Shown: positions 46,359 to 62,033 of the stretch, piece by piece
How the letters are laid out: each line of letters opens with the position of its first letter
How positions within the stretch are numbered: the stretch's first letter is position 1
Source: Escherichia phage ECP2303
DNA: 64,000 bases
Direction: 5' to 3' (one strand)
Sequence record: PP261279.1
Notes under the pieces: model-generated
Database searches by the model: none
What the model was told of the DNA's origin: nothing
Seen by the model: only the letters and a program-made list of their open reading frames with translations
Made by a program: the position numbers and the translations under genes

Positions 46359-46360
46359 TA

Positions 46361-46392: not shown

Positions 46393-46421
46393 TTGGCACA
46401 CAGTGAGCTAGGAGGTACAGT

Positions 46422-46538
46422 ATGTCTAAAGGTATTTATAAAATTTGCAAGTGTGGTTGTCGTTGTAATCTTCGGTGGTGCAAGGCATTAGACGATTTTA
46501 TTTGGCATTGCCCTAAATGCGATGCGGAGTACTTATAA
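46422..46538 (+). CDS. Cys-rich zinc-ribbon mini-protein (38 aa), not in the ORF track
   Basis: TAGGAGGT Shine-Dalgarno 6 nt upstream of the ATG; MSKGIYKICKCGCRCNLRWCKALDDFIWHCPKCDAEYL. Confidence 0.5.
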   Translation: MSKGIYKICKCGCRCNLRWCKALDDFIWHCPKCDAEYL

Positions 46539-46553
46539 GCATAAGGGGTCGAA

Positions 46554-46658
46554 ATGCGGAAATCTATCAAGAAAATCAAGATAAAATTGTTAGCACTGAA
46601 GCGTAAGTATAAAAAGTTATACGGCTTCATCAAATGGACTTTTATAGGTTTATCTTGA
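46554..46658 (+). CDS. small basic peptide (34 aa), not in the ORF track
   Basis: AAGGGG Shine-Dalgarno; MRKSIKKIKIKLLALKRKYKKLYGFIKWTFIGLS. Confidence 0.3.
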   Translation: MRKSIKKIKIKLLALKRKYKKLYGFIKWTFIGLS

Positions 46659-46689
46659 ATAGAAGCACACCACAGAAGAGAGGTTCCTT

Positions 46690-46926
46690 ATGATAGGTGT
46701 CTGTGTAAAAGCTAACAGATGGTTTACATTCGGTAAGGATTACGAAATTATCTTTCATTCGGACAGAGCCACAACAGTAGAAAGCGATGATGGGTGCCAC
46801 TGGTTCGTTAGTTACCATGGTGATGGGTATTATAGATCTACTGATTCCAGAGGGGAAGAAGCTGTTTTCTTGGATAGAGCTTATTGTGGGCCTGAATATC
46901 CTTACCTAAAAGAGGATAAGGAATGA
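46690..46926 (+). CDS. hypothetical protein
   Basis: 78-aa ORF upstream of nrdG. Confidence 0.5.
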   Translation: MIGVCVKANRWFTFGKDYEIIFHSDRATTVESDDGCHWFVSYHGDGYYRSTDSRGEEAVFLDRAYCGPEYPYLKEDKE

Positions 46927-47396
46927 ATGTTGTTAATATTATAGAGTGTAGCATGGTTGACGGCCCAGGCATTAGGACAACGGTGTTCTGTTCTGGTTGC
47001 CCACATCACTGCGTCGGTTGCCAAAACAAAAGTGTTTGGTCGCCAGCTAAAGGGGAACCGTTAACAAATGACACTATTGAGAGTATACTTCACTCTATAG
47101 AGCCGAAACACATTACTGGCGTTACATTATGCGGTGGCGAACCTTTAGCGCCTTACAATATTGAGGGTATGTACTCGATCATTCGCGCTATCCGTGAACA
47201 CTTCGGCAACACAAAAACTATCTGGGTGTACACAGGGTATTTGTTTGAAGAGGTTCCCGATTACATTAAAGATAGTGTCGATTACATTATGGATGGTAAG
47301 TACGAAAAAGATAACCCAACCAAAAAACCCTTCAGAGGTAGTGATAACCAAAGAATGTTTAAAAAGGTAGCAGGTGGTTGGGTTCAGGTTGACTAA
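46923..47396 (+). CDS. nrdG: anaerobic ribonucleotide reductase activating protein (radical SAM)
   Basis: 157 aa with Cys cluster CSGCPHHCVGC near the N-terminus. Confidence 0.8.
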   Translation: MNVVNIIECSMVDGPGIRTTVFCSGCPHHCVGCQNKSVWSPAKGEPLTNDTIESILHSIEPKHITGVTLCGGEPLAPYNIEGMYSIIRAIREHFGNTKTIWVYTGYLFEEVPDYIKDSVDYIMDGKYEKDNPTKKPFRGSDNQRMFKKVAGGWVQVD

Positions 47397-47399
47397 TTG

Positions 47400-47429
47400 T
47401 TGACAAAGTTTTGTTAAGTTGGTTATAAT
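47400..47429 (+). promoter_or_regulatory. sigma70-like promoter
   Basis: TTGACA-N18-TATAAT. Confidence 0.55.
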
Positions 47430-47458
47430 TAGCGTAATGAAAGCAGAGGAGGTGCCAA

Positions 47459-47572
47459 ATGGCTAAAAAAGCCTTGAAGAAGGCGTACAAGAAAGAGATT
47501 GCGCTTGAGCTTAAGAAAAAACACAAGCGTGAAAAGAAACATCATGAAGATGAAGAGGGGGTGCAACAGTGA
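47459..47572 (+). CDS. small Lys-rich protein (37 aa), not in the ORF track
   Basis: GAGGAGGTG Shine-Dalgarno; MAKKALKKAYKKEIALELKKKHKREKKHHEDEEGVQQ. Confidence 0.5.
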   Translation: MAKKALKKAYKKEIALELKKKHKREKKHHEDEEGVQQ

Positions 47573-47919
47573 CACAAGAACGTATCGATTTGGCTAATAA
47601 GTTTGTAGACCTCATTTTGCCACGGTTAGTTACTCAACATGCAGATGCTATTTCTACTAATCTTGATGGCTTACGCCTAATGCTGAATCGCACAGATGAC
47701 CCTCGTATTCGGGCTGATTTAGAAGCCTCTGCCAACAAACTGGAAAAGTTCTTGCAAGTAGACACGCAAGAAGCCTTGCACAAGATTATGGTGGAAGGTT
47801 TCTCTAAAGAATTTACCATTAAAGAGCTTAAGGAGCTGATCCACCAAGAAGAGATGAATATCCGAGTTCAGGCTGTTGCAAGCAGCATGGAAGCGGCTAT
47901 TGAAAAACTGTTGCAGTAA
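47569..47919 (+). CDS. hypothetical protein
   Basis: 116-aa helical ORF, probable GTG start overlapping the upstream stop. Confidence 0.45.
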   Translation: MTQERIDLANKFVDLILPRLVTQHADAISTNLDGLRLMLNRTDDPRIRADLEASANKLEKFLQVDTQEALHKIMVEGFSKEFTIKELKELIHQEEMNIRVQAVASSMEAAIEKLLQ

Positions 47920-47957
47920 AAGTACTTGGCACATCTCAATCTGAAAGGAGTCCCAAC

Positions 47958-48746
47958 ATGGGTCGAGCTAAAGAAACAAAACGCATGCGTGATGAAGCTA
48001 GAGAGGCTCGCAAATCTGATCGCCTGCGTAAGGCTGCTGAGAAATTTGCTGACGAAAGAGAGCACACCGCTCCAGCTCTCCGACCAATGAATAAGAAGCA
48101 GCAAAAGTATCTTGATTATCTAGGGTCACGTAAGATTATTATTGTAAACGGTGTGTTTGGATCCGGTAAGACATTTATGGCATCTGCATATGCAGGTGAT
48201 CTTCTGCGTAAGAACGAGATTGATAAGATCATTGTTGCACGTCCTTACGTCCAGACAGGAAAGACTTCAGGATTTAAACCTGGAAATGCAATGCAGAAAC
48301 TGTGGCCCTATCTTAGAAGCATGATGGACACGATTTGTCGTCGTGTTGGCAAAGGTGCTTTTGCAGCAATGCTTGGGGACGGTCAGAACAGCCGTATCGA
48401 GATTTGTGAGGTTGAAAGCATTCGTGGTCGTAGTTTTGATGAACGATGCTTTGTCCTTATTGATGAAGCACAGCAAACTAACCCTGAAGAAATGTTGTCA
48501 ATTATCACAAGGATCTCTGATCAGGCCACCCTTGTAATTATGGGTGATAATAGCCAACGTGACATCCCTGGTAAATCTGGCCTTGCATGGGTGACAGATT
48601 TCTTTACTCGCCATCCAGATCCTGATGTTGGAATGATTAGCTTTGATAGTCCAGACGATGTCGTTCGTTCCGGGTTAGGCCGTCAGATTGCACTCAATCT
48701 TATTGAGGATCGTGCAAATCATATTTGGACTCCTGTTTCCGAGTAA
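47958..48746 (+). CDS. phoH: PhoH-like ATPase
   Basis: 262 aa; Walker A GVFGSGKTF and Walker B LIDEAQ. Confidence 0.8.
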   Translation: MGRAKETKRMRDEAREARKSDRLRKAAEKFADEREHTAPALRPMNKKQQKYLDYLGSRKIIIVNGVFGSGKTFMASAYAGDLLRKNEIDKIIVARPYVQTGKTSGFKPGNAMQKLWPYLRSMMDTICRRVGKGAFAAMLGDGQNSRIEICEVESIRGRSFDERCFVLIDEAQQTNPEEMLSIITRISDQATLVIMGDNSQRDIPGKSGLAWVTDFFTRHPDPDVGMISFDSPDDVVRSGLGRQIALNLIEDRANHIWTPVSE

Positions 48747-48751
48747 TACAG

Positions 48752-48775
48752 AAGGGTGGTTATTCCACCCTTAAA
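48752..48775 (+). terminator. intrinsic terminator after phoH
   Basis: GGGTGG-TTATT-CCACCC hairpin followed by TTAAATAT. Confidence 0.55.
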
Positions 48776-48790
48776 TATCTAAAACAGTTG

Positions 48791-48819
48791 TTGACAAACA
48801 GGTGAGCTTTAGATATTAT
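48791..48819 (+). promoter_or_regulatory. sigma70-like promoter
   Basis: TTGACA-N17-TATTAT. Confidence 0.55.
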
Positions 48820-48849
48820 TATTGGACAAAACAAGGAGAAGGGCACAGT

Positions 48850-49161
48850 ATGGCTACAATACAAGAGAGACTGAATAAAATATACTGCCTGTTTGTGCAT
48901 AACGGCGAGACAATTTTGGCAAATAAGGGATTCAAGAATGTGTGGACCAAGGACAGTGGTGGTAATATAATCAACCTAGCGTTGCTACGTGAGCGCCGAC
49001 ACAGATTCTTTATCGAGTCTCGGATTATTGAAAGCAGCACCTGCTACAGAACAGGCGATAAAGTAATTGTTGACAATGATACGTGGTATGTGGTAGACTG
49101 GCAATCATTGAGCTGTGATGCTTCTGACAATCGTAAGTATTCTATAGTGATTGCTAAATAA
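48850..49161 (+). CDS. hypothetical protein
   Basis: Trimmed to the ATG with AAGGAGAAGGG Shine-Dalgarno; 103 aa. Confidence 0.5.
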   Translation: MATIQERLNKIYCLFVHNGETILANKGFKNVWTKDSGGNIINLALLRERRHRFFIESRIIESSTCYRTGDKVIVDNDTWYVVDWQSLSCDASDNRKYSIVIAK

Positions 49162-49221
49162 AGGTAAATGTGAATCAGGTTTAAATAAATAGCTTTCAAC
49201 TTCCAATATTAAGGATTTCTC

Positions 49222-50271
49222 ATGAATTTAACACCTCGCAGCACCATGGTACACGGCATGAAAGAAAAACAGAACGGTTTCGAACCTATGAGTAATAAAA
49301 TGTTCGGTATGCCGGGTGGTATTATGGAGACATACAGCTACCCAACACCTGTTGTTGACCACGTTCTTTATATCGACGATTTGGAAGACCTGCAGGATCA
49401 TATGTCTCGCCTGCAGACGATCCGTATGGCTCAGCCTGAAGAAAGCATTCGAGTGATCATTAACAGCCCTGGTGGTTGCGTGCACATTGCGATGGCTTAT
49501 CTGCAGGCATTCCGCGAGTCTCAGGCAAGCGTTGTTGCACATGCGGAAGGGATGTGCTGCTCTGCGGGAACAATCTTATGGCTGGGTTGCAAAGAACGTA
49601 CTGTGGCTCCGGACACAGAATTTATGTTCCACTACTATCAAGGTGGCACTTATGGTAACGGTGTGAACATGAATACTCAGGTCAGCTACTGGAAAAAGCG
49701 TTTCGAACGCCTGATCGAAAAATACTACGGTTGGGTGCTGACAGAAGATGAGATCGCATCCATCACAGCTGGTGGTGAAGTGTGGTTGGACGGAGAGGAG
49801 CTGGCAGCTCGAACTGGAGCTATCATTCTGGATGAAGGTAACATACAACGCATCCAGAACGGACAAAAACCGAAAAAGCTTCTGGCAAAAGGTGATGAAG
49901 AAGGTGTGTTAGGTGAAGCAGGTCTCCCGGAGATTCACCAGTGTACCTCTTTAGATGAGTTAGTTCATGCTGTTGAATCTGCAAAAGCTGGTGGTTCGAA
50001 AGGTGATGTTCACACTGTGTTCCTGAACCTGCAGATGGAAAGTGGTGAGACCGTTAAGATTGCCTTAGGTGAGATTACCTCAGAAGATCTGCAGCGATTC
50101 TCTGTCGTTGAACTTCAAGACATTTTGTCCCAATTGAAGACAACCCTAAACGGCGGTGAAGAGGTTAAGGTAAAAGATAAGACTCGCAAGCGTCTGGTGG
50201 ACAATATTATTAAAACAGCAAAAGAGCTCAATGAAAAAATCCTGGGTGCAGGAATTGTCGAAGAAGCTTAA
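49222..50271 (+). CDS. ClpP-family serine protease with C-terminal extension
   Basis: 349 aa; INSPGG, GMCCSAGT (Ser) and MFHYYQGG (His) match ClpP catalytic regions; extra ~150-aa acidic C-terminal domain. Confidence 0.65.
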   Translation: MNLTPRSTMVHGMKEKQNGFEPMSNKMFGMPGGIMETYSYPTPVVDHVLYIDDLEDLQDHMSRLQTIRMAQPEESIRVIINSPGGCVHIAMAYLQAFRESQASVVAHAEGMCCSAGTILWLGCKERTVAPDTEFMFHYYQGGTYGNGVNMNTQVSYWKKRFERLIEKYYGWVLTEDEIASITAGGEVWLDGEELAARTGAIILDEGNIQRIQNGQKPKKLLAKGDEEGVLGEAGLPEIHQCTSLDELVHAVESAKAGGSKGDVHTVFLNLQMESGETVKIALGEITSEDLQRFSVVELQDILSQLKTTLNGGEEVKVKDKTRKRLVDNIIKTAKELNEKILGAGIVEEA

Positions 50272-50283
50272 ACATTAATTCTA

Positions 50284-50306
50284 AAGCCCTCTTCGGAGGG
50301 CTTTTA
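50284..50306 (+). terminator. intrinsic terminator
   Basis: AAGCCCTC-TTCG-GAGGGCTT hairpin followed by TTAT. Confidence 0.65.
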
Positions 50307-50322
50307 TGATCTGGAGATTTGC

Positions 50323-50856
50323 ATGACTTGTGCTCGAAAACCTGATGAACAACGTAACGCCTACGATGAGTATGTGACACCGGAGTGGTGTGCAGAAGGG
50401 CTGTATGACCTTATTCCGTTCCCAGAAGACTGGACCTACTTAGAGCCTTGCAGGAATAGTGCCTCAGGTGTGTTCTACTCCCGTATGCCGTTAGGATCTG
50501 CATGGGGAGAAATCCAAGAAGGTGTTGACTATCTGAATACAGAATACAACCATGTTGACTGTATTATCACCAACCCACCATACAGTTTGGCTCGTGAGTT
50601 TGTAGACAAGGCGTTGAAAGATGCTGACGTAGTTATTATGCTTTTGCGTCTTAATTTTCTGGAAAGCAAAGCCAGATTTGAATGGTGGCTTGATAATGCA
50701 CCTACCACTGTGATCACAATATCTAAGCGTCCATCTTTTCAATCAAATGGCAGAACTGACGGGCAAGCATATGCATATTTTGTGTGGGATAAGAAAAACC
50801 GTTTAGGCTTGCCGCCGTTTATGTGGTTGGCACCCCCAGAGGTAGACCTGAAATGA
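50323..50856 (+). CDS. small DNA N6-adenine methyltransferase (orphan)
   Basis: 177 aa with an NPPY catalytic motif (CIITNPPYSLA). Confidence 0.6.
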   Translation: MTCARKPDEQRNAYDEYVTPEWCAEGLYDLIPFPEDWTYLEPCRNSASGVFYSRMPLGSAWGEIQEGVDYLNTEYNHVDCIITNPPYSLAREFVDKALKDADVVIMLLRLNFLESKARFEWWLDNAPTTVITISKRPSFQSNGRTDGQAYAYFVWDKKNRLGLPPFMWLAPPEVDLK

Positions 50857-51137
50857 AAATGAGTGCTAAGGACAAATTACACCAGCTAGCGCTAAAACGC
50901 CCTGTAACGCTCCCTGACGAGCTTAACTCCATTTATGATGCGATTGTAGGGGAGATACAAAATAAAGCGTTAGCAGGCTTTCTGGGGTGCGGATTTTCGA
51001 TAAATCTACCCTCGCATCTCTCAGATTACTTCCCGCACATTGTTGGAGATTTAAGGGCAGGAGGTCTGCAGGTAGATGTTGTTGGCATCTCCCCAGAGAA
51101 AAATAATACGGTTGCCTACTTGACAGTAACCTGGTAG
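50853..51137 (+). CDS. hypothetical protein
   Basis: Trimmed to the ATG overlapping the upstream stop (ATGA). Confidence 0.45.
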   Translation: MKMSAKDKLHQLALKRPVTLPDELNSIYDAIVGEIQNKALAGFLGCGFSINLPSHLSDYFPHIVGDLRAGGLQVDVVGISPEKNNTVAYLTVTW

Positions 51138-51172
51138 TTGTGTATTGTTGTTTTCAACAAGAGGGGTCATTT

Positions 51173-51412
51173 ATGTACAAGTCATTTTCAATCTACTCAA
51201 GACAGGCGAAACACTACACAGAGATCCTGATCACTCAGAAAAAATCTGTGGAAGGTGAGTGGGAATATCACCATAAAATGTTGCGTCCAGACTGGGTTTT
51301 TGATAGACTTATTGCTATGATCCCTCTCGGAGAAGTATACCCTCTGACAGCCCATCGCGATGCTTGGGATTTAATTGATTACATAGATTCATTTAAGGAG
51401 CCTAGATTATGA
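51173..51412 (+). CDS. hypothetical protein
   Basis: Trimmed to the ATG with AGAGGGG Shine-Dalgarno. Confidence 0.45.
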   Translation: MYKSFSIYSRQAKHYTEILITQKKSVEGEWEYHHKMLRPDWVFDRLIAMIPLGEVYPLTAHRDAWDLIDYIDSFKEPRL

Positions 51413-51807
51413 AGATTGAGATTACTAAAGAAGGTAAGAAAGTGTCCGGCAACTATGCAACAGTAATTCGGGATTTAATGTTTGAAGCCACCAAGATCGG
51501 TACATCTAAAGTTGGTCAAACTGTTAGTGTGAAAAGTAATATCTCCACAGGAGAGAAGGTATTCATTGTGGTCAAAGGGCAGGATCCCGTGGAAGGAACA
51601 GTGGGCCGAGGTGGCTACCTGTGCATTTCTGAAGAGCCGCGTATGTTAGTGGCTGACGCTACTATGGGTGGGAAACGTGTGTGCGAGGCGGATGAGGTAA
51701 TGATTATCCAACCTGTTGATCCAGATGACCCAGCAACTTGGGTGGTAGGAAATGAAATCTTCTCTTTAGAAGAGTTATCCTTCCCAGCACCGCGCTCTGT
51801 TCAGTAA
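51409..51807 (+). CDS. small protein, MK(I/V)-start paralogous family member
   Basis: 132 aa starting MKIEIT with a VVKGQDP motif. Confidence 0.45.
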   Translation: MKIEITKEGKKVSGNYATVIRDLMFEATKIGTSKVGQTVSVKSNISTGEKVFIVVKGQDPVEGTVGRGGYLCISEEPRMLVADATMGGKRVCEADEVMIIQPVDPDDPATWVVGNEIFSLEELSFPAPRSVQ

Positions 51808-51844
51808 TAATTTATCTTACCAGGGACGGTAGGTAGGAGGTAGC

Positions 51845-52078
51845 ATGAAAGTTAAATTTCTTACAGATTTAGGGTACCCTTCCTTGGTTGACTGTGTTGG
51901 TAAAATTGTGGAAGCAAAACGGCTATCTGCAAACGAGAATGTTGTCCTGGTTAAAGGGAAGGATTTACTAGCTGCAGGTGCAGAGTCTGGCAGGATCTCT
52001 CCTGATTATATGTATTACCTATCTTTAAGTAATCTGCCAGAGCGAGGCGGTAAAGGCCTTGAAGTTGTGGAGGAGTGA
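51845..52078 (+). CDS. small protein, MKVK/VKGxDL paralogous family
   Basis: 77 aa; MKVKFLTDLGY...VGKIVEA...VLVKGKDLLAAGAESG; strong Shine-Dalgarno. Confidence 0.55.
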   Translation: MKVKFLTDLGYPSLVDCVGKIVEAKRLSANENVVLVKGKDLLAAGAESGRISPDYMYYLSLSNLPERGGKGLEVVEE

Positions 52079-52083
52079 CAGGT

Positions 52084-52608
52084 ATGCTTCTGATTAACTG
52101 GGAAGACCTCTATGGGGACAAAGACCCTGTTGCGTTTGTTGATCGTAGGTGGAGATACACTGAAGAACAACTGGCGGCAAAAAATTTAACTGCAAAACGC
52201 AGAAAGATCATCCAGTGCAAGTACAAATACGCACAGTTTGCTGCAAAAGTGTCTCCACAAATCGAGAGCTTTGTGCTTAAATTGTATGACGAGTACCTCA
52301 AATTCAAATTGGATTTTGTGCAGGTGTACCGTGCACAGGTACGACCAGATACCAACATATGTAGATGGAAGGTTGTTTGTGAAGGTAAAGATTTGCCGCT
52401 CAGCTTGACAATTGAGTGGCGTTATGGGTATCATGAGTGTGGTCTGTATGATATTTGGGATGTCATTGTAGATCCTGCTAAGCATCTGAACACAGAGGAG
52501 CTGGAATATATCAATAAGGTTATTCTCGATATGTTTTTCAGCTACACACATGAAAACTCTGAGAAAGAACGGGATAATTTTCTTGACACCCTCAGCGACC
52601 ATTTGTAG
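52084..52608 (+). CDS. hypothetical protein
   Basis: Trimmed to the ATG after GGAGGAG; ~175 aa. Confidence 0.5.
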   Translation: MLLINWEDLYGDKDPVAFVDRRWRYTEEQLAAKNLTAKRRKIIQCKYKYAQFAAKVSPQIESFVLKLYDEYLKFKLDFVQVYRAQVRPDTNICRWKVVCEGKDLPLSLTIEWRYGYHECGLYDIWDVIVDPAKHLNTEELEYINKVILDMFFSYTHENSEKERDNFLDTLSDHL

Positions 52609-52611
52609 TAT
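52583..52611 (+). promoter_or_regulatory. sigma70-like promoter
   Basis: TTGACA-N17-TAGTAT within the 3' end of the upstream gene. Confidence 0.45.
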
Positions 52612-52638
52612 ACAATTTAACCTACAAAGGGAGGACCA

Positions 52639-52866
52639 ATGAGTATAAATGTTGTGCTAATAGGTTACCTGGTAATGTCCGTTATAACAGCGGTATTCTT
52701 GACAGGTGTATGCATCGTGTCCAGACGAAGGGTGAAGTTTGATGATTTTATCACCATCATCACTGCTGCACCTTTTTGGCCTGTTGTTATCTTCATCGTA
52801 ATAATGTGCCTAGTTGATTACTACAAGAATATCAGGAAGGAGAGTAGGGATGGAGACCGCACCTAA
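52639..52866 (+). CDS. two-TM small membrane protein (holin-like candidate)
   Basis: 75 aa with two hydrophobic helices and a charged C-terminus; AAGGGAGGA Shine-Dalgarno. Confidence 0.5.
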   Translation: MSINVVLIGYLVMSVITAVFLTGVCIVSRRRVKFDDFITIITAAPFWPVVIFIVIMCLVDYYKNIRKESRDGDRT

Positions 52867-53002
52867 AACTATCTATACTGTTCTTAAAGAGATTGCGTTC
52901 TACGCAGATCTTAGCCAGGCACCTTTATGGGAAAAGAGCATGTATTTAAAATGGTGCGTTAATTTAGGGAGACCTTCCAGTGTTTCAAGCCATGTTTATT
53001 GA
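52850..53002 (+). CDS. hypothetical small protein
   Basis: Trimmed to the ATG with GGAAGGAGAG Shine-Dalgarno; 50 aa. Confidence 0.35.
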   Translation: METAPKTIYTVLKEIAFYADLSQAPLWEKSMYLKWCVNLGRPSSVSSHVY

Positions 53003-53085
53003 GATGCTATCTGGGATATTGTTACTGGTAGCCATCTTAGGTGGTGCAGTTCTGATGTATAACTATCTTGAAAAAGGAGACAGCA

Positions 53086-53271
53086 ATGGTAAAAAATAAA
53101 TCTTTAGAGCAGGCTGAAAACCTTCTCCACGAGCTGGTAAAGGAGTGGAAAGTTGAATACTCAGATTTTAATGCACGAGAGGGTGAAGATTATTGGCCTA
53201 CGGAGCGCTCAGAGGGCGAATGGTATCAAGATTTTATAGAGTGGTTATATCAGACGTGCGATGAGGGGTGA
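53086..53271 (+). CDS. hypothetical protein
   Basis: Trimmed to the ATG with AAAGGAGA Shine-Dalgarno; acidic. Confidence 0.45.
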   Translation: MVKNKSLEQAENLLHELVKEWKVEYSDFNAREGEDYWPTERSEGEWYQDFIEWLYQTCDEG

Positions 53272-53738: not shown

Positions 53739-53800
53739 TAGTTGAGATATGGCACAAAGGATGTGCCATAGTGAAATAAACTAAGAAAGAGGTAGAGAGA

Positions 53801-54623: not shown

Positions 54624-54641
54624 ACCAGGCAGGAGGGTTTT

Positions 54642-54827
54642 ATGAAGCACTATTGCCTGTCTGGTAGAATGGGTGCAGATTGTGATTGGGTTTTCTTAAA
54701 ACTTGTCAGCATTCGAGAGTTCATCCCAGAGGAAGAGCAAGAAAGCGAGCTGATGTCATGGATCAACCATTACGGTAACACTTTTCGGCATGTTAAGGTA
54801 GAAGAGTTGCCAAGCGAGGCTGATTGA
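54642..54827 (+). CDS. hypothetical protein
   Basis: 61-aa ORF with GGAGGG Shine-Dalgarno. Confidence 0.45.
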   Translation: MKHYCLSGRMGADCDWVFLKLVSIREFIPEEEQESELMSWINHYGNTFRHVKVEELPSEAD

Positions 54828-54829
54828 CT

Positions 54830-54919
54830 ATGATTGCATCAATATTAACGTTTATAGGTGGCGTGGCATTCGGATTCATTGTTTGCCTGTTTATAGTGAT
54901 TATGTCTATGCGAGGCTGA
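54830..54919 (+). CDS. hydrophobic micro-protein (29 aa), not in the ORF track
   Basis: MIASILTFIGGVAFGFIVCLFIVIMSMRG; fills the gap between flanking genes. Confidence 0.35.
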   Translation: MIASILTFIGGVAFGFIVCLFIVIMSMRG

Positions 54920-54922
54920 ATT

Positions 54923-55727: not shown

Positions 55728-55971
55728 AATTCTTGATTCTAACGTCTACTTGGGACAATCCTTCCTGAAGGGAAAGGTCGTTCCTGCGGTATACTTTGAA
55801 GGGTTGCCGTGGGATGATCCTGTGCGGCAACATCACAGTTATGTAGGCCACAACGTGGTGTTTATCTTGGGATCAGACCTGATCGCTGCTGGTGCACCGG
55901 AATATTATTTCGGGGAAGAATCCTATTATGCCTTTGGGGCAGGGTCAGATGCAGATATTGTAGAGCTGTGA
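55717..55971 (+). CDS. small protein, MKVK/VKGxDL paralogous family
   Basis: MKVKILDSNVYLGQ...KGKVVPA...FILGSDLIAAGAP; tandem to the previous paralog. Confidence 0.55.
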   Translation: MKVKILDSNVYLGQSFLKGKVVPAVYFEGLPWDDPVRQHHSYVGHNVVFILGSDLIAAGAPEYYFGEESYYAFGAGSDADIVEL

Positions 55972-55983
55972 TGGGTAACCGTT

Positions 55984-56382
55984 GTGAAAAATAAACTGTT
56001 CAGAGTTACAATGAAAATTCGCGGAGCTTGGAGCGTAAAGCAAGGGCGTATTCCAGAATTTGAGAAAAACTTCTACGTAGTCTCCACCTCGGAGGAGGCT
56101 GCATGCTGGCAAGCTGGCTATGCCTATGCAAGAACCTGGTACGAAGGATACCAGACTGGAGGCTATGACGGAGAAATTATCAGCAAGGGTGTAGAAGAAA
56201 TTAATGTGTTGACAAGTGAAAAAGTTTTTGTTATAGTGCATCCAGATTCCAGAGTGAAGCATTACTGGAATGCCAGAACAAAAACTTGGACACCGTTTGC
56301 AGATTCTGCTACGCCACTTTTAAACCAGAAAGCTCTTGACTCTGCCCCAAGTTATGGGGTTGTTGAAGAAAAGCTAAACTGA
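55984..56382 (+). CDS. hypothetical protein, paralog of 58189..58584
   Basis: Shared blocks with 58189..58584 (EG, KxFV..HP.S...YW, WTP, AT.L); possible GTG start. Confidence 0.5.
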   Translation: MKNKLFRVTMKIRGAWSVKQGRIPEFEKNFYVVSTSEEAACWQAGYAYARTWYEGYQTGGYDGEIISKGVEEINVLTSEKVFVIVHPDSRVKHYWNARTKTWTPFADSATPLLNQKALDSAPSYGVVEEKLN

Positions 56383-56399
56383 AACAGTGAGGTGCCACT

Positions 56400-56690
56400 A
56401 TGATGGATTTAGTTCGGAATATTGATAACGCAGGAGAGCTTAAAGACGATGGTGTAACAAGCATGGACAAACCCTGCTCTGCAGAGGTTGACTCAAAATG
56501 GACCTACAAGTTTGACGGAGAGATCTTCGCAAATGATGAGAAGGTTGTGGATGCTGCAGCCATTTTGAACGCTCTAGGGTACGACCCTGTGAATTCTTTG
56601 ATCAAGGATCCTGTTGAGTTTGCAGAGTATGTTCGAAAAATGGCAGATCTTGCTGTGGATATTTTAAAAACTATCGACGACAAGCTGTAA
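56400..56690 (+). CDS. hypothetical protein
   Basis: 96-aa acidic ORF. Confidence 0.45.
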   Translation: MMDLVRNIDNAGELKDDGVTSMDKPCSAEVDSKWTYKFDGEIFANDEKVVDAAAILNALGYDPVNSLIKDPVEFAEYVRKMADLAVDILKTIDDKL

Positions 56691-56696
56691 AAACTG

Positions 56697-56725
56697 TTGA
56701 CACAACGCTTCAGATTTAGTATCAT
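56697..56725 (+). promoter_or_regulatory. sigma70-like promoter
   Basis: TTGACA-N17-TATCAT. Confidence 0.45.
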
Positions 56726-56772
56726 TGTTTTCAAAGAGGGTTTGGTTCCCTCTTCTTTAAAAGGAACACGTT

Positions 56773-57090
56773 ATGCAAATTGAAATCACTGGCAACGTAG
56801 AAATCACTGAAGGTATGGTGTCTTTCATTTCCCACAAAATGTCTAAGCTGGAGCGTTTGCACCCCTCTGCCAACTATGCACGTGTGAGTGTAAAAGTTGA
56901 AAATGATCACCAGGAAGTTATGGCGTTCATTTTTGACAATTCTGGAAAAGAAGTTATTGCCAAAGCTAAAGGCAGTGATGCTTACGAGGCAACTGACCGT
57001 ATGGTAGATGTTGCAGCACGTCAACTGGCTAAATGCGGTGGAAAGAAAGGTAAGGGGAAAGGCAAAGTAAAGATTGACTTTGGAGAATGA
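56773..57090 (+). CDS. hypothetical protein
   Basis: 105-aa ORF with AAAGGAA Shine-Dalgarno and basic GKKGKGKGK tail. Confidence 0.5.
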   Translation: MQIEITGNVEITEGMVSFISHKMSKLERLHPSANYARVSVKVENDHQEVMAFIFDNSGKEVIAKAKGSDAYEATDRMVDVAARQLAKCGGKKGKGKGKVKIDFGE

Positions 57091-57099
57091 GGTGCTACA

Positions 57100-57201
57100 A
57101 TGGGTGTGATCAAGAAATTAGTCCCAAATGTAGAGATTGCATGCTTTGAAATTATGTTTGCAATCGCAGTTGTAGTTAATGTGTTAGGTTACGGCTATTA
57201 A
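57100..57201 (+). CDS. hydrophobic micro-protein (33 aa), not in the ORF track
   Basis: TGAGGTG Shine-Dalgarno; MGVIKKLVPNVEIACFEIMFAIAVVVNVLGYGY. Confidence 0.4.
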   Translation: MGVIKKLVPNVEIACFEIMFAIAVVVNVLGYGY

Positions 57202-57227
57202 TATCAAATAATTGAGGAGACCTCTAA

Positions 57228-57497
57228 ATGAAAATTAAATTATTCAAAACTGAGCTGGCAGACAAAAACTGTGGACTGGTTGAAGGTATGATTGTCGAAG
57301 CACAACCAGTTGACTATATGAAGGTGGTTCGTGATGCCCTGGGTGAAGGTTTTGATCTGATGGAGCCAGCTCTGCGAGAAGATGTTATCGAGATGGCTAA
57401 AAAGCACACACCTGAAGGCATGGTGGTGTTTGTTGCACCGGGTAACGGAGAAGAGTTGATTGTAACTCCGGATGTGTATGAGATTGTAGAGGAATAA
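57228..57497 (+). CDS. small acidic protein, MKIK-start family
   Basis: 89 aa beginning MKIKLFKTEL with GAGGAGA Shine-Dalgarno. Confidence 0.5.
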   Translation: MKIKLFKTELADKNCGLVEGMIVEAQPVDYMKVVRDALGEGFDLMEPALREDVIEMAKKHTPEGMVVFVAPGNGEELIVTPDVYEIVEE

Positions 57498-57588
57498 TCC
57501 TGCTTGGATTAGCATACTTCCTCGATAAGGAAGGTTTGTAATTATTTGTGGGAAAGGAATCCCAATCTCTTACCAGAGGTGATACTAT

Positions 57589-57852
57589 ATGATTGTTTAT
57601 TTTAAAACTTCAGGTGGATACCCTGATTCTCAAAGCTTGATCGGAAAAACGTGCACAGCATACTCACCTCTTGATGAGGAGGTAGGCGATATTCTACGAA
57701 ATATGTATCGGATTGACCCCCAAGAAGCCTTTGATCAAAACCTTGTATTTGTCAAGGGCTCAGATATGAAGTCTTTGGGAGCATTCCCTGAAGCAGATGA
57801 TGATGCCGTTTATTCGTTCATGACTCCTTTTGAAGCTATGGTTGTTGGGTGA
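57589..57852 (+). CDS. small protein, VKGxDL paralogous family
   Basis: LIGKTCTA...LVFVKGSDMKSLGAF motif. Confidence 0.5.
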   Translation: MIVYFKTSGGYPDSQSLIGKTCTAYSPLDEEVGDILRNMYRIDPQEAFDQNLVFVKGSDMKSLGAFPEADDDAVYSFMTPFEAMVVG

Positions 57853-57856
57853 TAAT

Positions 57857-58189
57857 ATGAAAGTACGCTTTATTGGTGAAACAATTCCTGTGCATCTCCG
57901 GTCTCCTGAGGATTCTGCAGATCTTGCATCTCAAAAGGCGAGAGGTTATGATAAGAAAGTAACCTCAACCGATGTAGTGCTTGAGGCTACCAGTCTACCT
58001 GACCCTGCGGCATTCTTTAATCATTATGGGTACTATTTCAGCAATCTGATGAATATCGGTGAGCTTGTGTTTATTAGTGGTGGAGAGATTGTTAGCAAGC
58101 TTGGCGGCGATCCAGATGTCTTTCATGAAACCTGTCCTTTTGCATTTGTGGTAGGTTCAGATGTGGAAGTTATTGAGGAGGTGCGGTAA
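57857..58189 (+). CDS. small protein, MKV-start family
   Basis: Trimmed to MKVRFIGET; ELVFISGGEIVSKLGG motif. Confidence 0.45.
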   Translation: MKVRFIGETIPVHLRSPEDSADLASQKARGYDKKVTSTDVVLEATSLPDPAAFFNHYGYYFSNLMNIGELVFISGGEIVSKLGGDPDVFHETCPFAFVVGSDVEVIEEVR

Positions 58190-58584
58190 TGGTAAGCCTG
58201 TACCGTGTTGAGTATAGCTCAGATACTGTATACAACGTAAGAAGCAAAGATCGCAGCGACAGAGTGCAAGAAATGTATGTTCTTGCCGACAGTCCGTTAT
58301 CTGCAGCGTTCAAGGCAGGGGCTCTTGCATCTCGTTGGAAATTTGAAGGGGGATCTTTCTATGAAGAAACCCTTGAAGATTCTGTTGTTATTTCTTCTGT
58401 AGAGGTTTCAGACGACTACGAAGGGAAAAAGTTCGTAATGCGGCACCCACACAGCAACATTGCGTACTACTGGGATGTTCTGAACAACGAGTGGACCCCA
58501 GATCTTCAGAAGGCTACTGTGCTAACACCGTTTTTGGCAGATAAGTTCCCACCAGAAGGTAATTTATCCGCACTGTTTCAGTAA
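58189..58584 (+). CDS. hypothetical protein, paralog of 55984..56382
   Basis: Shared blocks with 55984..56382 (see that entry). Confidence 0.5.
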   Translation: MVSLYRVEYSSDTVYNVRSKDRSDRVQEMYVLADSPLSAAFKAGALASRWKFEGGSFYEETLEDSVVISSVEVSDDYEGKKFVMRHPHSNIAYYWDVLNNEWTPDLQKATVLTPFLADKFPPEGNLSALFQ

Positions 58585-58602
58585 TTTTCTTGCACACAGG
58601 TG

Positions 58603-58631
58603 TTGACAACGCCAACCCTGTGTGAAATAAT
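58603..58631 (+). promoter_or_regulatory. sigma70-like promoter flanked by an 8-bp inverted repeat
   Basis: TTGACA-N17-AATAAT; CACACAGG (58592-58599) and CCTGTGTG (58617-58624) bracket the -35. Confidence 0.4.
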
Positions 58632-58663
58632 ACCTTCATCTTAACAAGACAGGAGACCGATTG

Positions 58664-58921
58664 ATGAAGATTAAATTGAAAAACCTTGAAACGGCAGAGA
58701 TTCAGGACGGTGTTGATTTCCGTTCTAAAGATGGTGACATCTTAGAGGTAAATATTCCAACCTACAAGCTGATTAAAGGTTTTGGCAACGTTCCGGAAGA
58801 GGATATTACAGAAATTCTTATGATGTTGATTCTTGACGGAACTGTGTTTGTAGGTGAAGGTGAGAACGCTATTGCAATCCCAGGCCATTTTTATGAAGTA
58901 GTTGACGAAGAGGTGCTGTAA
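58664..58921 (+). CDS. small acidic protein, MKIK-start family
   Basis: MKIKLKNLE with AGGAGA Shine-Dalgarno. Confidence 0.5.
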   Translation: MKIKLKNLETAEIQDGVDFRSKDGDILEVNIPTYKLIKGFGNVPEEDITEILMMLILDGTVFVGEGENAIAIPGHFYEVVDEEVL

Positions 58922-59272
58922 ATGAAAGTAGAAATTACTGGTTTTGATGTGAATGTGGTTCCGGAAGATATTTTAGCTAAACTCCCGGAAGGTTTTGGTA
59001 ACGGTGTTGTGGTGGATGCTGTTCCTCCTACCAAAGACATTCTGCTGCAGTATGGTGTAGCAGAGGAAGATGTCGATAAAGTTCTTACAATGATGGCAAT
59101 CGATCGTGTTGTCGTTGTTAAAGGTCTCGATAATTTTGAGAGTGATCCCCTGATTATTCGTGGAGATGACTATAAAATCATCGATAATGAAGGCCAAGAG
59201 TTCTATGAGCCTTGTGCAGAAGATATTCTTAACTTATTACTGGAAGCAGGTACCGAAGAGGAGGACGAATAA
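58922..59272 (+). CDS. small acidic protein, MKV-start family
   Basis: MKVEITGFD...VVVKGLDN. Confidence 0.5.
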   Translation: MKVEITGFDVNVVPEDILAKLPEGFGNGVVVDAVPPTKDILLQYGVAEEDVDKVLTMMAIDRVVVVKGLDNFESDPLIIRGDDYKIIDNEGQEFYEPCAEDILNLLLEAGTEEEDE

Positions 59273-59601
59273 TGAAGATTGACCCGTTACTGAAGGCTCG
59301 TGCAGAAAAAGCGTACACCATTAAGCTGACCAACCTGGTTCCTACTTGTCATCCAGATGTAGGTTGGCCTGAAGGTCTGGTAGAGGGGACTGTAACAGCT
59401 GCATACCTCCCTAACATCAAATACCTTATGGAAATCTTGGAGCTGGATGAGGAAACGGCAGAAGAGTTACAGTTGGACATGAAACAAAGTGGGACTCTGG
59501 TTATTCACGGGTGGTATAATACTAAAGACGCAGAAGACCCTCTTGTAACTTCTAATCTGGCATATGAAATCTTAGGACCTTTGAACCTGGGGGAAGACTA
59601 A
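59272..59601 (+). CDS. small acidic protein
   Basis: 109-aa ORF starting MKIDPLL; overlapping start/stop. Confidence 0.45.
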   Translation: MKIDPLLKARAEKAYTIKLTNLVPTCHPDVGWPEGLVEGTVTAAYLPNIKYLMEILELDEETAEELQLDMKQSGTLVIHGWYNTKDAEDPLVTSNLAYEILGPLNLGED

Positions 59602-59888
59602 TGAAAGATCTGGTTAAGATTAAGATTAAAGATACCAACGGCGAACTCAGCCATTTTGGAATTAATGATGGTGACGAGCTGATCGCACACCTGCCTACCA
59701 AGGAAGTTGTAAGCAAAGCAGTTGCCGGAGAAGAAGCTGCAATGCAGGCTGCAGGTGTTGATGAAAACTATGTAGCTATGTGCATGTGCCGAGATCAGGT
59801 TGTTCTGTATAAAGCGTATCGACCAAACGGAGCCACGGAGTGGCTTGTATTCCGACCCGAAGGGTATGAAATCTTAGAGGCACTATGA
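59601..59888 (+). CDS. small protein
   Basis: 95-aa ORF starting MKDLVKIKIK. Confidence 0.45.
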   Translation: MKDLVKIKIKDTNGELSHFGINDGDELIAHLPTKEVVSKAVAGEEAAMQAAGVDENYVAMCMCRDQVVLYKAYRPNGATEWLVFRPEGYEILEAL

Positions 59889-59968
59889 TAAATCTTGCCA
59901 AGGTTGCAATGGTCCTGCTAATTATTTGCTGGTCAGTAACCTTAACACTGTGTCTTGTATTTCAGTAA
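59885..59968 (+). CDS. hydrophobic micro-protein (27 aa), not in the ORF track
   Basis: ATG overlaps the upstream stop (ATGA); MINLAKVAMVLLIICWSVTLTLCLVFQ. Confidence 0.35.
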   Translation: MINLAKVAMVLLIICWSVTLTLCLVFQ

Positions 59969-59977
59969 GGTGCTTGT

Positions 59978-60241
59978 ATGAACATCCTGATGTGGGTTGT
60001 AGCAGTGGCGTTTGTTGCATGTTTTTGCTGCTGGGTTGCGGTGAGGATTTCTGTAGCTACCCTTCGGAAGTTGGGGTTCTCAGAGTGGGATATTAATATC
60101 CTTTCTTTTCGCAATGAAACAATCTCAGCCGCCCTGCTCTGTAAGAAATTCAAGTGGGAACCTTGTGAGGTCATGAACTATCTAAGAACGGGGGATATCC
60201 CTGAAAGATTTAAAAAAGTTCTTGACGGCAAGGATAAATGA
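59978..60241 (+). CDS. membrane protein
   Basis: 87 aa with N-terminal TM MNILMWVVAVAFVACFCCWVAV. Confidence 0.5.
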   Translation: MNILMWVVAVAFVACFCCWVAVRISVATLRKLGFSEWDINILSFRNETISAALLCKKFKWEPCEVMNYLRTGDIPERFKKVLDGKDK

Positions 60242-60269
60242 TAGTATAGTGACTAACAAGAGGTGAGGA

Positions 60270-60410
60270 ATGACTGATTTTACTGAAGCTTTAATGATGG
60301 CCTTGTCTGTTTTAGCGCTATCGGTGTGTTTTGGGGCGTTATTCACATCTCTGGTTAAAGTTTTACATACAGTATTATTACCCAAGGAGCGCAGTAATGA
60401 CGAAGATTGA
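60270..60410 (+). CDS. hydrophobic micro-protein (46 aa), not in the ORF track
   Basis: GAGGTGAGG Shine-Dalgarno; central TM segment ALMMALSVLALSVCFGALF. Confidence 0.4.
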   Translation: MTDFTEALMMALSVLALSVCFGALFTSLVKVLHTVLLPKERSNDED

Positions 60411-60648
60411 CTTGAATGCTGGCGACCATGTTGTTGTCAAATGCATCGGAGATTATCTTGGATTCACAATCGGCAATACTTACGAGGCGGTAGTGGCGAA
60501 GGTTTACCATGATAAAGTCCTCAGTCTTGTATTTGACTGTGATGATGATGGGGATGACCGATACGTCTGTGAGGTGCTGGCACGAGACGATAGTGAAGAC
60601 CAGAAATTCCTGGTTATTGAACTGAACGGTATTTTTGTAGAACGTTAA
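60397..60648 (+). CDS. hypothetical protein
   Basis: Trimmed to the ATG with AAGGAG Shine-Dalgarno; 83 aa. Confidence 0.5.
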   Translation: MTKIDLNAGDHVVVKCIGDYLGFTIGNTYEAVVAKVYHDKVLSLVFDCDDDGDDRYVCEVLARDDSEDQKFLVIELNGIFVER

Positions 60649-60676
60649 TTTAAAACAATATAAGGAGACTCTTACT

Positions 60677-60982
60677 ATGGCTAAATCTAAAGTTGAACTG
60701 TTCACCTCTCTTCCTTCTGACACTGCAGAACGTGATCGCCTTCGCAAAACAATCGAAGAACTGGTGGAACTCCAGCTTCAGATTAAAGACCTGAAAGATG
60801 CCATCAAGGATATCATTCTCGTTGAGAAGCAGGATCATCTGTATTCTCCTAAATTCATCAAATCTCTGGTGGCTACAGAGTTTGATATCCGCTACGAAGC
60901 TGAAAAACGTCGCGCTAAGATTGAAGAAGAGGTTGAGCACATGTCTGAGGCAGACATTCTGTTCAAACGCTCTGTAGAATAA
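60677..60982 (+). CDS. hypothetical coiled-coil protein
   Basis: 101 aa with AAGGAGA Shine-Dalgarno, followed by a terminator. Confidence 0.5.
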   Translation: MAKSKVELFTSLPSDTAERDRLRKTIEELVELQLQIKDLKDAIKDIILVEKQDHLYSPKFIKSLVATEFDIRYEAEKRRAKIEEEVEHMSEADILFKRSVE

Positions 60983-60987
60983 TATGG

Positions 60988-61013
60988 CAGAGGGGCTACG
61001 GCCCCTCTTTCAC
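60988..61013 (+). terminator. intrinsic terminator
   Basis: GAGGGGC-TAC-GGCCCCTC hairpin followed by TTTCACTATTT. Confidence 0.65.
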
Positions 61014-61034
61014 TATTTGCAAAAGGAACCAGCT

Positions 61035-61361
61035 ATGAGAATACCAATCACTGTGAAAGAGCTAAATGAACGTGATGCAGGCGGTATATGGCCTGCACGA
61101 AAAATCCGCTGCGTTTATATGAAAGAGAATCTTGAACATCTTGATCAACAGATCAAGGTAGGTGATATTTTTGAGGTCTTCTATTCCAATCGTCGCAACT
61201 GGGAAACCATTCAGCCTTCTGGTTTTGTTCTTGCCAAACTTGACACCGGAGAAGTGATTATCCCTGGGTTAGATATTGTCTTCGAAATTATCCAGGAGTG
61301 GGATCCGGATAAGATTAGATACGAAGAGTTATTCGGTAAAGGTATTATCAAACCTGTGTGA
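61035..61361 (+). CDS. hypothetical protein
   Basis: Trimmed to the ATG downstream of the terminator; 108 aa. Confidence 0.45.
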   Translation: MRIPITVKELNERDAGGIWPARKIRCVYMKENLEHLDQQIKVGDIFEVFYSNRRNWETIQPSGFVLAKLDTGEVIIPGLDIVFEIIQEWDPDKIRYEELFGKGIIKPV

Positions 61362-61369
61362 GGTGGATT

Positions 61370-61669
61370 ATGTCTACAAAGGCGGCTAAATACTCCTACA
61401 TGCCATCAACCTCTGCAGAGGTAGACTTTAGTTTCGATGTGTTTCCACTGTTTGAGGTGGTTCTGGCATACCCAACAATACTATCTACTCCTGAATCACT
61501 TGTGCCTGTTAAGTTGCAGAACGCTATGCATTCTATGCACTACAACAATAAATGTAGGCACAGATGGTGTCAGGACGAGGAAAAAGATTTGGATAGTTTG
61601 AGGGATTTTGACAGTCACCTTTTGACACCTTTTAGCTACTCCAATCTTGATAAGCCCTCCTGGGTATAG
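61370..61669 (+). CDS. hypothetical protein
   Basis: Trimmed to the ATG with GAGGTGG Shine-Dalgarno. Confidence 0.45.
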   Translation: MSTKAAKYSYMPSTSAEVDFSFDVFPLFEVVLAYPTILSTPESLVPVKLQNAMHSMHYNNKCRHRWCQDEEKDLDSLRDFDSHLLTPFSYSNLDKPSWV

Positions 61670-61693
61670 CAAAATATCAAATTTAAGACACCT

Positions 61694-61716
61694 AGGACGC
61701 TCTGTGGCGTCCTTTT
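61694..61716 (+). terminator. intrinsic terminator
   Basis: AGGACGC-TCTGT-GGCGTCCT hairpin followed by TTTCTTT. Confidence 0.65.
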
Positions 61717-61882
61717 CTTTATCTGGTGCACGATTGCATACCTTTGACAGATAATCTCATTACAGAGCGTTTAAGAGCTTCCTACAAACAAATCTCTCTT
61801 TCGAGCGTAGCGAGAACGCACGTCCGTTTTGACCCAAATCACCATACGCTCGGATTTTAACCAAACCCTCGCGGCGTTTCTG

Positions 61883-61911
61883 TTGACACATTACCGCTCC
61901 AGTGATAGTAT
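61883..61911 (+). promoter_or_regulatory. sigma70-like promoter
   Basis: TTGACA-N17-TAGTAT upstream of the micro-ORF at 61932. Confidence 0.5.
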
Positions 61912-61931
61912 CCACACATAGTTTGGAGAAT

Positions 61932-62033
61932 ATGGAATACACAATGAGAACATTGTCCGAAGTTTTAGTGGTGATCCTGATGATCATTACGTCCATAGCG
62001 GCTGTTGCCGGAATACTCACAGGTGGGACATGA
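61932..62033 (+). CDS. hydrophobic micro-protein (33 aa), not in the ORF track
   Basis: GGAGAA Shine-Dalgarno; MEYTMRTLSEVLVVILMIITSIAAVAGILTGGT; stop overlaps the next start. Confidence 0.4.
   Translation: MEYTMRTLSEVLVVILMIITSIAAVAGILTGGT

Follow-up and report, generated by a model that had tools for sequence, protein, structure and literature searches.

Candidate micro-genes in the small-gene block of an rV5-like Escherichia phage

Reading frames in the gaps of the block

The DNA analysed here is a stretch of 64,000 nucleotides from Escherichia phage ECP2303 (PP261279.1), referred to below as the window, and our subject is a set of seven very short open reading frames (ORFs), m1 to m7, that lie in one of its gene blocks. 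A first-pass annotation of the window had described them as micro-ORFs of 27-46 amino acids (aa), and all seven were found on the plus strand at the positions that it gave, in gaps between larger genes (Table 1). The region that holds them, 46300-62100, matches Escherichia phage ECP2309 (PP464953), a member of the genus Vequintavirus, with 100% identity, and shares 90-98% identity with about 125 other rV5-like genomes. It is part of a rightward block in which nrdD and nrdG are followed by genes for PhoH, ClpP and a methyltransferase, and then by many small genes; the 2013 rV5 paper describes the area as "88 mainly small ORFs" whose transcription is driven by sigma-70-type promoters (PMC3606486).

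Between 46.3 and 62.4 kb, 13 intervals of at least 79 nt separate genes of at least 50 aa. Eight of them contain a candidate micro-ORF, and three others contain promoters annotated in rV5. The products of m3 to m7 are strongly hydrophobic, with a best 19-residue Kyte-Doolittle mean (KD19) of 2.27-2.95, and each has a single hydrophobic segment, at least some 19 residues long, as a single-pass membrane protein requires. The five single transmembrane helices predicted in the first-pass annotation are thus borne out by hydropathy. Such values are uncommon in the window: among its 474 ORFs of 25-50 aa, counted in six frames, just 10 reach a KD19 of at least 2.2. Six of these are m3 to m7 and x8, a sixth membrane micro-gene that was missing from the earlier list, and two are shadows that m1 and m2 cast in another frame or on the opposite strand. 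The remaining two lie elsewhere on the minus strand, at 22857-22985 (42 aa) and 9329-9424 (31 aa).

The ribosome-binding sites or stop overlaps reported for the set were confirmed as well. The duplex energies with the anti-Shine-Dalgarno sequence range from -5.8 to -13.3 kcal/mol, within the range of long genes (42 genes, median -8.3, interquartile -9.3 to -6.3 kcal/mol; other ATGs, median -2.4 kcal/mol), and m5 overlaps the upstream stop. Promoter-like sites lie near m2 and m7, and possibly also near m1 and m6.

Table 1. Micro-ORFs and associated features of the window, in order of position. SD energy, duplex energy with the anti-Shine-Dalgarno sequence; pN/pS, ratio of nonsynonymous to synonymous differences, pooled over comparisons with the window.
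Feature	Position	Strand	Description	SD energy (kcal/mol)	pN/pS
m1	46422..46538	+	38 aa, seven Cys (C9, C11, C13, C15, C20, C30, C33)	-11.5	0.07
Lys-rich ORF in insert	46554-46658		34 aa; rV5 gp110
78-aa ORF in insert	46690-46926		PHROG 3249
Promoter-like site of m2	47400..47429	+	TTGACA-18-TATAAT, 12/12 consensus matches; rV5 promoter P118
m2	47459..47572	+	37 aa, 12 Lys; rV5 ORF118; 4-nt overlap with start of next gene (47569)	-13.3	0.06
x8	52980..53099	+	39 aa from GTG, 35 aa from ATG; predicted single helix; rV5 ORF131		0.07 (52992-53099)
Left direct repeat GCGAGGCTGA	54814..54823	+	10 bp; includes Shine-Dalgarno core GAGG
m3	54830..54919	+	29 aa, hydrophobic, KD19 2.73; alternative TTG start 54824	-7.6	0.54
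Right direct repeat GCGAGGCTGA	54910..54919	+	gives m3 stop codon and Shine-Dalgarno sequence of next gene
m4	57100..57201	+	33 aa, predicted single helix; rV5 ORF145; PHROG 15151	-6.9	0.21
m5	59885..59968	+	27 aa, hydrophobic, KD19 2.65; ATGA overlap with upstream stop	-5.8	0.37
87-aa protein	59978..60241	+	predicted N-terminal helix, KD19 2.62 at residues 3-21; PHROG 13956
m6	60270..60410	+	46 aa, predicted single helix, acidic C-terminal tail; rV5 ORF156; PHROG 16755	-7.1	0.32
Terminator-like hairpin	61694..61713	+	8 pairs, then T-run; closes preceding transcription unit
Promoter-like site of m7	61883..61911	+	TTGACA-17-TAGTAT, extended -10
m7	61932..62033	+	33 aa, or 29 aa from 61944; predicted single helix; 4-nt overlap with next ATG (62030)	-6.4	0.10

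Conservation in relatives, which the first-pass annotation had named as a check, was found: the micro-ORF frames are unbroken in all Vequintavirus loci fetched. Pooled over the comparisons with the window, pN/pS is lowest for m1, m2, m7 and x8 and highest for m3, and in the alternative frames it is about 1 or higher. Against L007, an IMG/VR contig from an uncultivated, more distant relative, pN/pS is 0.05 for m1 and for m2, 0.23 for m4 and 0.28 for m6; across comparisons it is 0.21-0.38 for m4 and 0.4-0.6 for m3 and m5. The excess of substitutions at third codon positions is significant for m1, m2, m6, m7 and x8. Hence, m1, m2, m6, m7 and x8 are under purifying selection, with pN/pS of 0.05-0.32. 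We regard it as very likely that m1, m2, m4, m6 and m7 are genes, and as probable, with good confidence, that m3 and m5 are genes as well.

Most of the seven are already known as hypothetical genes, so that the earlier description of the set as unannotated does not hold. The ECP2309 record annotates m2, m4, m6 and m7 together with 52992-53099 (x8), those of MaxTheCat (Bas57) and PMBT16 annotate six (m1, m2, m3, m4, m6 and m7), and that of MiataMamis annotates m1 and m3. In Table S3 of the rV5 paper, m2 appears as ORF118, and ORF145 (m4), ORF156 (m6) and ORF131 (x8) are entered as "membrane protein, 1 TMD", that is, with one transmembrane domain (TMD) (PMC3606486). These four rV5 genes (ORF118, ORF145, ORF156 and ORF131; rv5_gp113, gp140, gp151 and gp126) are orthologs of m2, m4, m6 and x8, respectively; they stand at the same genome positions with 94-100% identity and differ by strain-level substitutions only. 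Full-length profile matches place five of the peptides in PHROG families, namely m1 (20137, 4e-31), m2 (7670, 2e-20), m4 (15151, 4e-26), m6 (16755, 4e-36) and m7 (34195, 4e-21), with m1 and m7 matching end to end; PHROG 15251 is likewise a family shared with this set. The same search found no family for m3 or m5. What is new here is modest: m5 as an overlooked gene, the direct-repeat cassette of m3, the occurrence of m1 in an unrelated podophage, and a few corrections of annotation.

The individual loci

m3 is carried on a 96-nt presence/absence cassette of the form GCGAGGCTGA-(m3)-GCGAGGCTGA. Given that the repeat contains both a Shine-Dalgarno core and a stop codon, m3 and the gene that follows it receive the same ribosome-binding junction. 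In Murica, a single copy of GCGAGGCTGA is found at the same junction and the flanking genes overlap directly. About 90 records contain m3, whereas phages of the Murica type and the divergent contigs L007 and L021 precisely lack it; hence it is dispensable in nature, and its gain probably took place within the genus. None of the 12 substitutions seen in m3 falls at a second codon position, the one on which the hydrophobicity of the encoded residue depends (P ~0.008 if the positions were equally likely).

m5, alone among the seven, lacks an annotation in all 15 annotated records that were inspected. With 84 nt including the stop codon, it was probably missed for falling below the minimum gene length of common gene callers. 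It is present at full length in 117 records, and its position is again taken by an ORF of 27 codons in the contigs L022 (62% identity), L007 and L021 (both 33%), with a KD19 of 2.65-2.73 and the same overlap with the upstream stop. Identical 27-codon boundaries are therefore found in four lineages that differ at 18 to 46 of the 84 nt, the largest number being that between the window and L007 (46/84 bases, or 55%). When neutral drift was simulated, 0.05% of replicates still had the start and stop codons, an unbroken frame and a hydropathy mean of at least 2.0 (P = 5e-4). The nonsynonymous divergence (pN) of m5 is about 10-fold that of the gene upstream (0.20 versus 0.02). Given this fast amino acid divergence with hydrophobicity kept, it follows that selection retains a helix and not a particular sequence.

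m5, the 87-aa protein and m6 form three successive predicted membrane proteins at 59885-60410. The 95-aa gene upstream of m5 (59601-59888) is represented in rV5 by two overlapping ORFs of 70 and 44 aa (gp148 and gp149); the alignment with rV5 has a 1-nt gap in this gene, so that the reference genome here carries a frameshift or else was sequenced with an error. m6 overlaps the next gene by 14 nt, its pN/pS is 0.26-0.32 across comparisons, and its homologs are 78-96% identical. Its start codon is ATG here, GTG in rV5, MaxTheCat and HdK5, and a non-start codon (Arg) in SYGMH1. In PMBT16, m6 is annotated in a shorter form, from Met9, and the conservation of residues 2-8 argues for the long form.

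m7 is the first ORF past a terminator-promoter pair, and the HdK5 record annotates a terminator at the place equivalent to the hairpin of Table 1. The gene is present in 113 records, and its start is ambiguous between 61932 and 61944; the profile of PHROG 34195 is 29 aa long and begins at M5. m7 might also be read as the N-terminal part of the gene downstream, as in rV5 gp157. This was rejected: pN/pS is 0.10 in the frame of m7 versus 0.92 in that of gp157, and 8 nt separate the two ORFs in L007.

m4 starts 9 nt past the stop codon of a gene for a ribosome hibernation factor homolog (Ribosomal_S30AE). It is found in 117 records with 91-100% identity and keeps two Glu residues inside its helix in all relatives; from residue 11 to residue 33 there is no change, not even in L007 and L021. 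As far as seen, m4, m6 and m7 occur in Vequintavirus records or in metagenome contigs only, and those contigs are 78-96% identical. x8 lies two genes downstream of a putative holin gene and was annotated in ECP2309 from the ATG; the Shine-Dalgarno sequence precedes the GTG. For 52980-53099, pN/pS is 0.05, with 2/2/22 substitutions at the three codon positions.

The one lysine-rich peptide claimed for the set is m2. It is the first ORF downstream of a consensus sigma-70 promoter, its pN/pS is 0.05-0.09 across comparisons, and the gene after it encodes a protein of 116 aa. Klebsiella phage KB57, a Mydovirus, and Escherichia phage LNA4, a Seunavirus, each have a 46-aa homolog of m2 followed by a homolog of the 116-aa gene, with the order kept; in KB57 the two genes are KB57_139 and KB57_140. 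By local tblastn of the fetched loci, their identity to m2 is 53% over the first 32 residues. With three genera of Vequintavirinae, m2 thus has the widest conservation of the seven. We suggest that m2 may be a basic helical peptide that acts together with the 116-aa protein. The gene order of Mydovirus and Seunavirus is otherwise not syntenic with the window. At the DNA level, the sole match outside the genus was a transcriptional-regulator gene, and a scan of IMG/VR with a protein neighbouring the micro-ORFs found one locus.

m1 is located between nrdD and nrdG, is preceded by the Shine-Dalgarno sequence GGAGG, and has full-length matches in about 120 phage records, with a pN/pS of 0.05-0.11. 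Its stop overlaps the start of nrdG by 4 nt in MiataMamis, JES2013 and ECP26, and an overlap is also present in WM, Murica and L007. In the window, as in rV5, MaxTheCat, HdK5 and PMBT16, an insert of about 380 bp (46539-46922) that is missing from those six parts m1 from nrdG. The insert contains a Lys-rich ORF of the same kind as the listed micro-ORFs and the ORF of a 78-aa protein; in a metagenomic protein of 62 aa (P0006), the N-terminus of m1 is joined to the C-terminus of this 78-aa protein. In other Vequintaviruses, the nrdD region is broken by homing-endonuclease genes and looks like a hotspot of mobile insertion: SYGMH1 has a gene annotated as a homing endonuclease there, WM has a 310-aa hypothetical gene between two pieces of nrdD, and in SophiaRose a GIY-YIG nuclease gene stands beside a 41-aa variant of m1.

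Outside the genus, the SP6-like podophage ACG-C91 carries an unannotated homolog of m1 with 36 aa, 82% identity over 34 residues and all seven Cys. It fills the gap between a DUF3310 gene and the gene for an ATP-dependent DNA ligase, and its stop overlaps the start of the ligase gene by 4 nt; no nrd gene was found within the 8 kb fetched. A phmmer search of 1.8 billion representative proteins added just three further true relatives of m1 (P0001, P0004 and P0007 were false hits driven by repeats). m1 thus appears to move between unrelated phages, and would always be located just upstream of, and coupled to, a gene of nucleotide or DNA metabolism.

The first-pass annotation had taken m1 for a Cys-rich zinc ribbon. 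Its richness in Cys (7 in 38 aa) is plain, and its assignment as a zinc ribbon is no more than plausible. In common with zinc-ribbon and zinc-knuckle micro-proteins, m1 has an N-terminal Cys pair and a C-terminal CPxC knuckle (an invariant CxC at residues 9-11 and an equally invariant CPKC at residues 30-33), together with modelled beta-hairpins: an AlphaFold2 (AF2) model shows four short strands and a helix, with short beta-hairpins, at modest confidence (predicted local distance difference test, pLDDT, 70). Unlike in a zinc ribbon, the first knuckle is CxC and not CxxC (CxxC does occur in variants of the SophiaRose type), and a simple zinc ribbon has nothing that would correspond to three additional invariant Cys of m1. 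Matches to the zinc-ribbon proteins eL43 and PolD DP2 and to a FYVE-type finger were weak and non-significant; Foldseek found nothing significant in the PDB (best E = 9.5), and m1 has no match in Pfam or NCBIfam, including the zinc-ribbon families of Pfam. m1 is probably a cytoplasmic, metal-binding peptide.

Other views of m1 were considered and rejected. The family label of PHROG 20137, "ribonucleotide reductase", under which m1 also goes in several records, would make it a component of the anaerobic enzyme. This is unsupported, as BLASTP of m1 against the phage's own NrdD matches CPxC alone (E = 0.28); a relic of the NrdD zinc site was rejected as well, the similarity being absent. The name is an annotation by adjacency only. 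Also rejected was a hydrophobic frame over m1 (46393-46491; rV5 ORF114), which encodes 75 aa in rV5 and 32 aa here; both alternative frames of m1 have a pN/pS of 0.8-1.6.

Function of the encoded peptides

The reading that we favour with moderate confidence is that these ORFs are genuine, translated micro-genes, most of whose products would, by analogy, act as accessory inner-membrane peptides on host or phage membrane proteins, with m1 as a metal-binding peptide and m2 as a partner of the gene downstream. The peptides of m3 to m7 and x8 would insert into the inner membrane of E. coli as single helices, and would then act by helix-helix contact on membrane proteins of the host or the phage, in an accessory host interaction and not in core lysis. 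A gene that is naturally present in some phages and absent from others, as m3 is, or whose amino acids change fast while hydrophobicity is kept, as in m5, fits a dispensable accessory role.

Several observations weigh against this reading. Taken singly, m3, m4 and m5 have no significant third-position excess, there being few substitutions to count. The Shine-Dalgarno sequence of m5 is the weakest of the set, and is weakened further, from GAGG to GAGA, in the FV3-like cluster. A promoter-like site (54807-54834) overlaps the start of m3, where the Gotham record annotates a promoter, and the authors of the Murica record placed a terminator inside m1. Membrane insertion is supported by hydropathy and, for m4 and m6 only, by the TMHMM and Phobius scan of the rV5 proteome, which marks ORF145 and ORF156 as 1 TMD (PMC3606486). 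Searches of Pfam, NCBIfam and the PDB gave the micro-ORFs no homology to a protein of known function, and searches of ten neighbouring genes against Pfam, NCBIfam and PHROG gave no function except for the Ribosomal_S30AE homolog upstream of m4. Finally, no transcriptome, ribosome profiling (Ribo-seq) or infected-cell proteome was found in the literature on rV5-like phages, the mass spectrometry of rV5 having taken in virions only (PMC3606486).

For m3 and m5, some of these points would also fit the view that the two are not genes at all, that their gaps are spacer or regulatory DNA (a promoter or a 5′ leader), and that the ORFs are incidental. The pN/pS of 0.4-0.5, the promoter-like site on the start of m3, the lack of annotation and weak ribosome-binding site of m5, and a +2 frame that is also free of stops in both cases are all compatible with it. 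Nevertheless, hydrophobic ORFs of such a size are rare by chance, and the boundaries of m5 and its KD19 above 2.6 survive a divergence that neutral drift would seldom allow. The absence of second-position substitutions in m3 is likewise at odds with an incidental ORF, as is a cassette that brings its own stop codon and duplicates the junction with the ribosome-binding site; the gap of m5 contains no promoter-like site and no match to an Rfam family. We therefore consider this view unlikely.

The remaining alternatives accept the ORFs and differ as to what they do. For m2, m7 and, in most relatives, m1, translation might serve solely as a leader that opens up the transcript and feeds ribosomes to the gene downstream, with a peptide that has no function. 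The 4-nt stop-start overlaps at m2, at m7, at m1-nrdG in MiataMamis, JES2013 and ECP26, and between the ACG-C91 homolog and the ligase gene would fit such a role, and promoter-like sites lie shortly upstream of m2 and m7. However, a functionless peptide is difficult to reconcile with strong purifying selection on the amino acids (pN/pS 0.05-0.10), with m1 having kept its full set of seven Cys on transfer to an unrelated phage, or with the 53% identity of m2 over three genera. Coupling and a function of the peptide can coexist, and a leader role on its own is very unlikely.

The first-pass annotation had proposed, among other roles, that the peptides are holin or antiholin components, and spanin-like parts of a lysis system could be envisaged on the same grounds. 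They are, indeed, single-helix membrane peptides, and the putative holin, rV5 ORF129 (2 TMD, 52639-52866), is encoded in the same block, with x8 two genes downstream. However, none of the seven adjoins the holin gene, and the endolysin gene, rV5 ORF89, is about 15 kb upstream. Holins usually have 2-3 TMDs and a charged C-terminus, large class III holins excepted; with one helix and 27-46 aa, the peptides are shorter than holins, and none of them is an alternative start form of ORF129. A lipobox is absent as well, since LIIC (m5), FIVC (m3) and LSVC (m6) lack a G, A or S at position -1, and phages of the Murica type are viable without m3. A holin or antiholin role is thus disfavoured, and we give participation in lysis little credence. 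Toxin-like disruptors that depolarise the host inner membrane are a comparably poor prospect: type I toxins such as TisB, Hok, Ibs and ShoB resemble the hydrophobic peptides in size and composition, and the two conserved acidic residues in the helix of m4 would suit an oligomeric pore, but no toxin family of NCBIfam or Pfam is matched, no Rfam family is present in the studied region, and six different depolarising peptides made before replication would come at a cost to the phage.

We return to accessory peptides that act on membrane proteins. The closest likeness is to the bacterial inner-membrane proteins of 50 aa or fewer, among them AcrZ, MgrB, KdpF, CydX, PmrR and MgtS (PMC12648545). The phage peptides share with AcrZ-type proteins the size range, a single helix with flanking charges and a history of being missed by annotation, and the action to be expected by analogy would be binding to a larger membrane protein. 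They differ in that there is no sequence similarity, and in that the peptides of the window are encoded by phages of one genus. Phages also encode small membrane proteins that exclude superinfecting phages or control lysis, such as T4 Imm, Sp and rI, the lambda S107 antiholin and P22 SieA; these are made during infection, are non-essential and vary among relatives. They have 80-100 aa or more, and many possess a second helix or a domain in the periplasm. The peptides of the window, with 27-46 aa, are unlike them in this respect, and homology was not found.

Superinfection exclusion, which had been raised in the first-pass annotation together with the inhibition of transporters, may apply, as may the inhibition of a host membrane protein. 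The narrower proposal that m3, m5 or m1 specifically inhibits a host protein is doubtful, although less so than the alternatives above. The target of m3 or m5 may in that case be an inner-membrane transporter, a protease, a sensor or a defence component, and that of m1 may be a cytoplasmic factor of nucleic-acid or nucleotide metabolism. If this were true, a phage peptide of 27-38 aa would be a determinant of host range, anti-defence or superinfection exclusion, and m1 would represent a new mobile family of metal-binding micro-proteins common to a genus of myophages and an SP6-like podophage. rV5-like phages serve in the typing and biocontrol of E. coli O157, and their small-gene block is expected to hold host-specific functions; six conserved membrane micro-proteins and two soluble ones, with the presence/absence variant m3 among them, are defined targets for screening.

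Annotation corrections and further observations

Nothing reported here alters the present understanding of phage biology, and its practical value is in the correction of annotation. m5 should be added and the ribonucleotide reductase name of m1 dropped. Given that the pattern of selection favours the frames of m1 and m7, rV5 gp109 (ORF114, "membrane protein", 75 aa), which overlaps m1, and the N-terminal extension of rV5 gp157, which overlaps m7, are in the wrong frame.

Three further observations concern the window and its relatives. About 18 records named 'Campylobacter phage' (MG0656xx, host C. jejuni) show 95-98% identity over the whole region, and are probably mislabelled or contaminating rV5-like phages. 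From about 62600 to 64000, the window enters the start of a stretch that the rV5 paper called non-coding (rV5 104013-106618); no Rfam family or tRNA was matched in this part, and the MiataMamis record and some later ones annotate many very small ORFs in the rV5 "non-coding" stretch. Lastly, seven tRNA genes are found on the minus strand at 20313-21124, namely Pro, Met, Thr, one with an odd call of a 4-base anticodon, Ser, Tyr and Arg.

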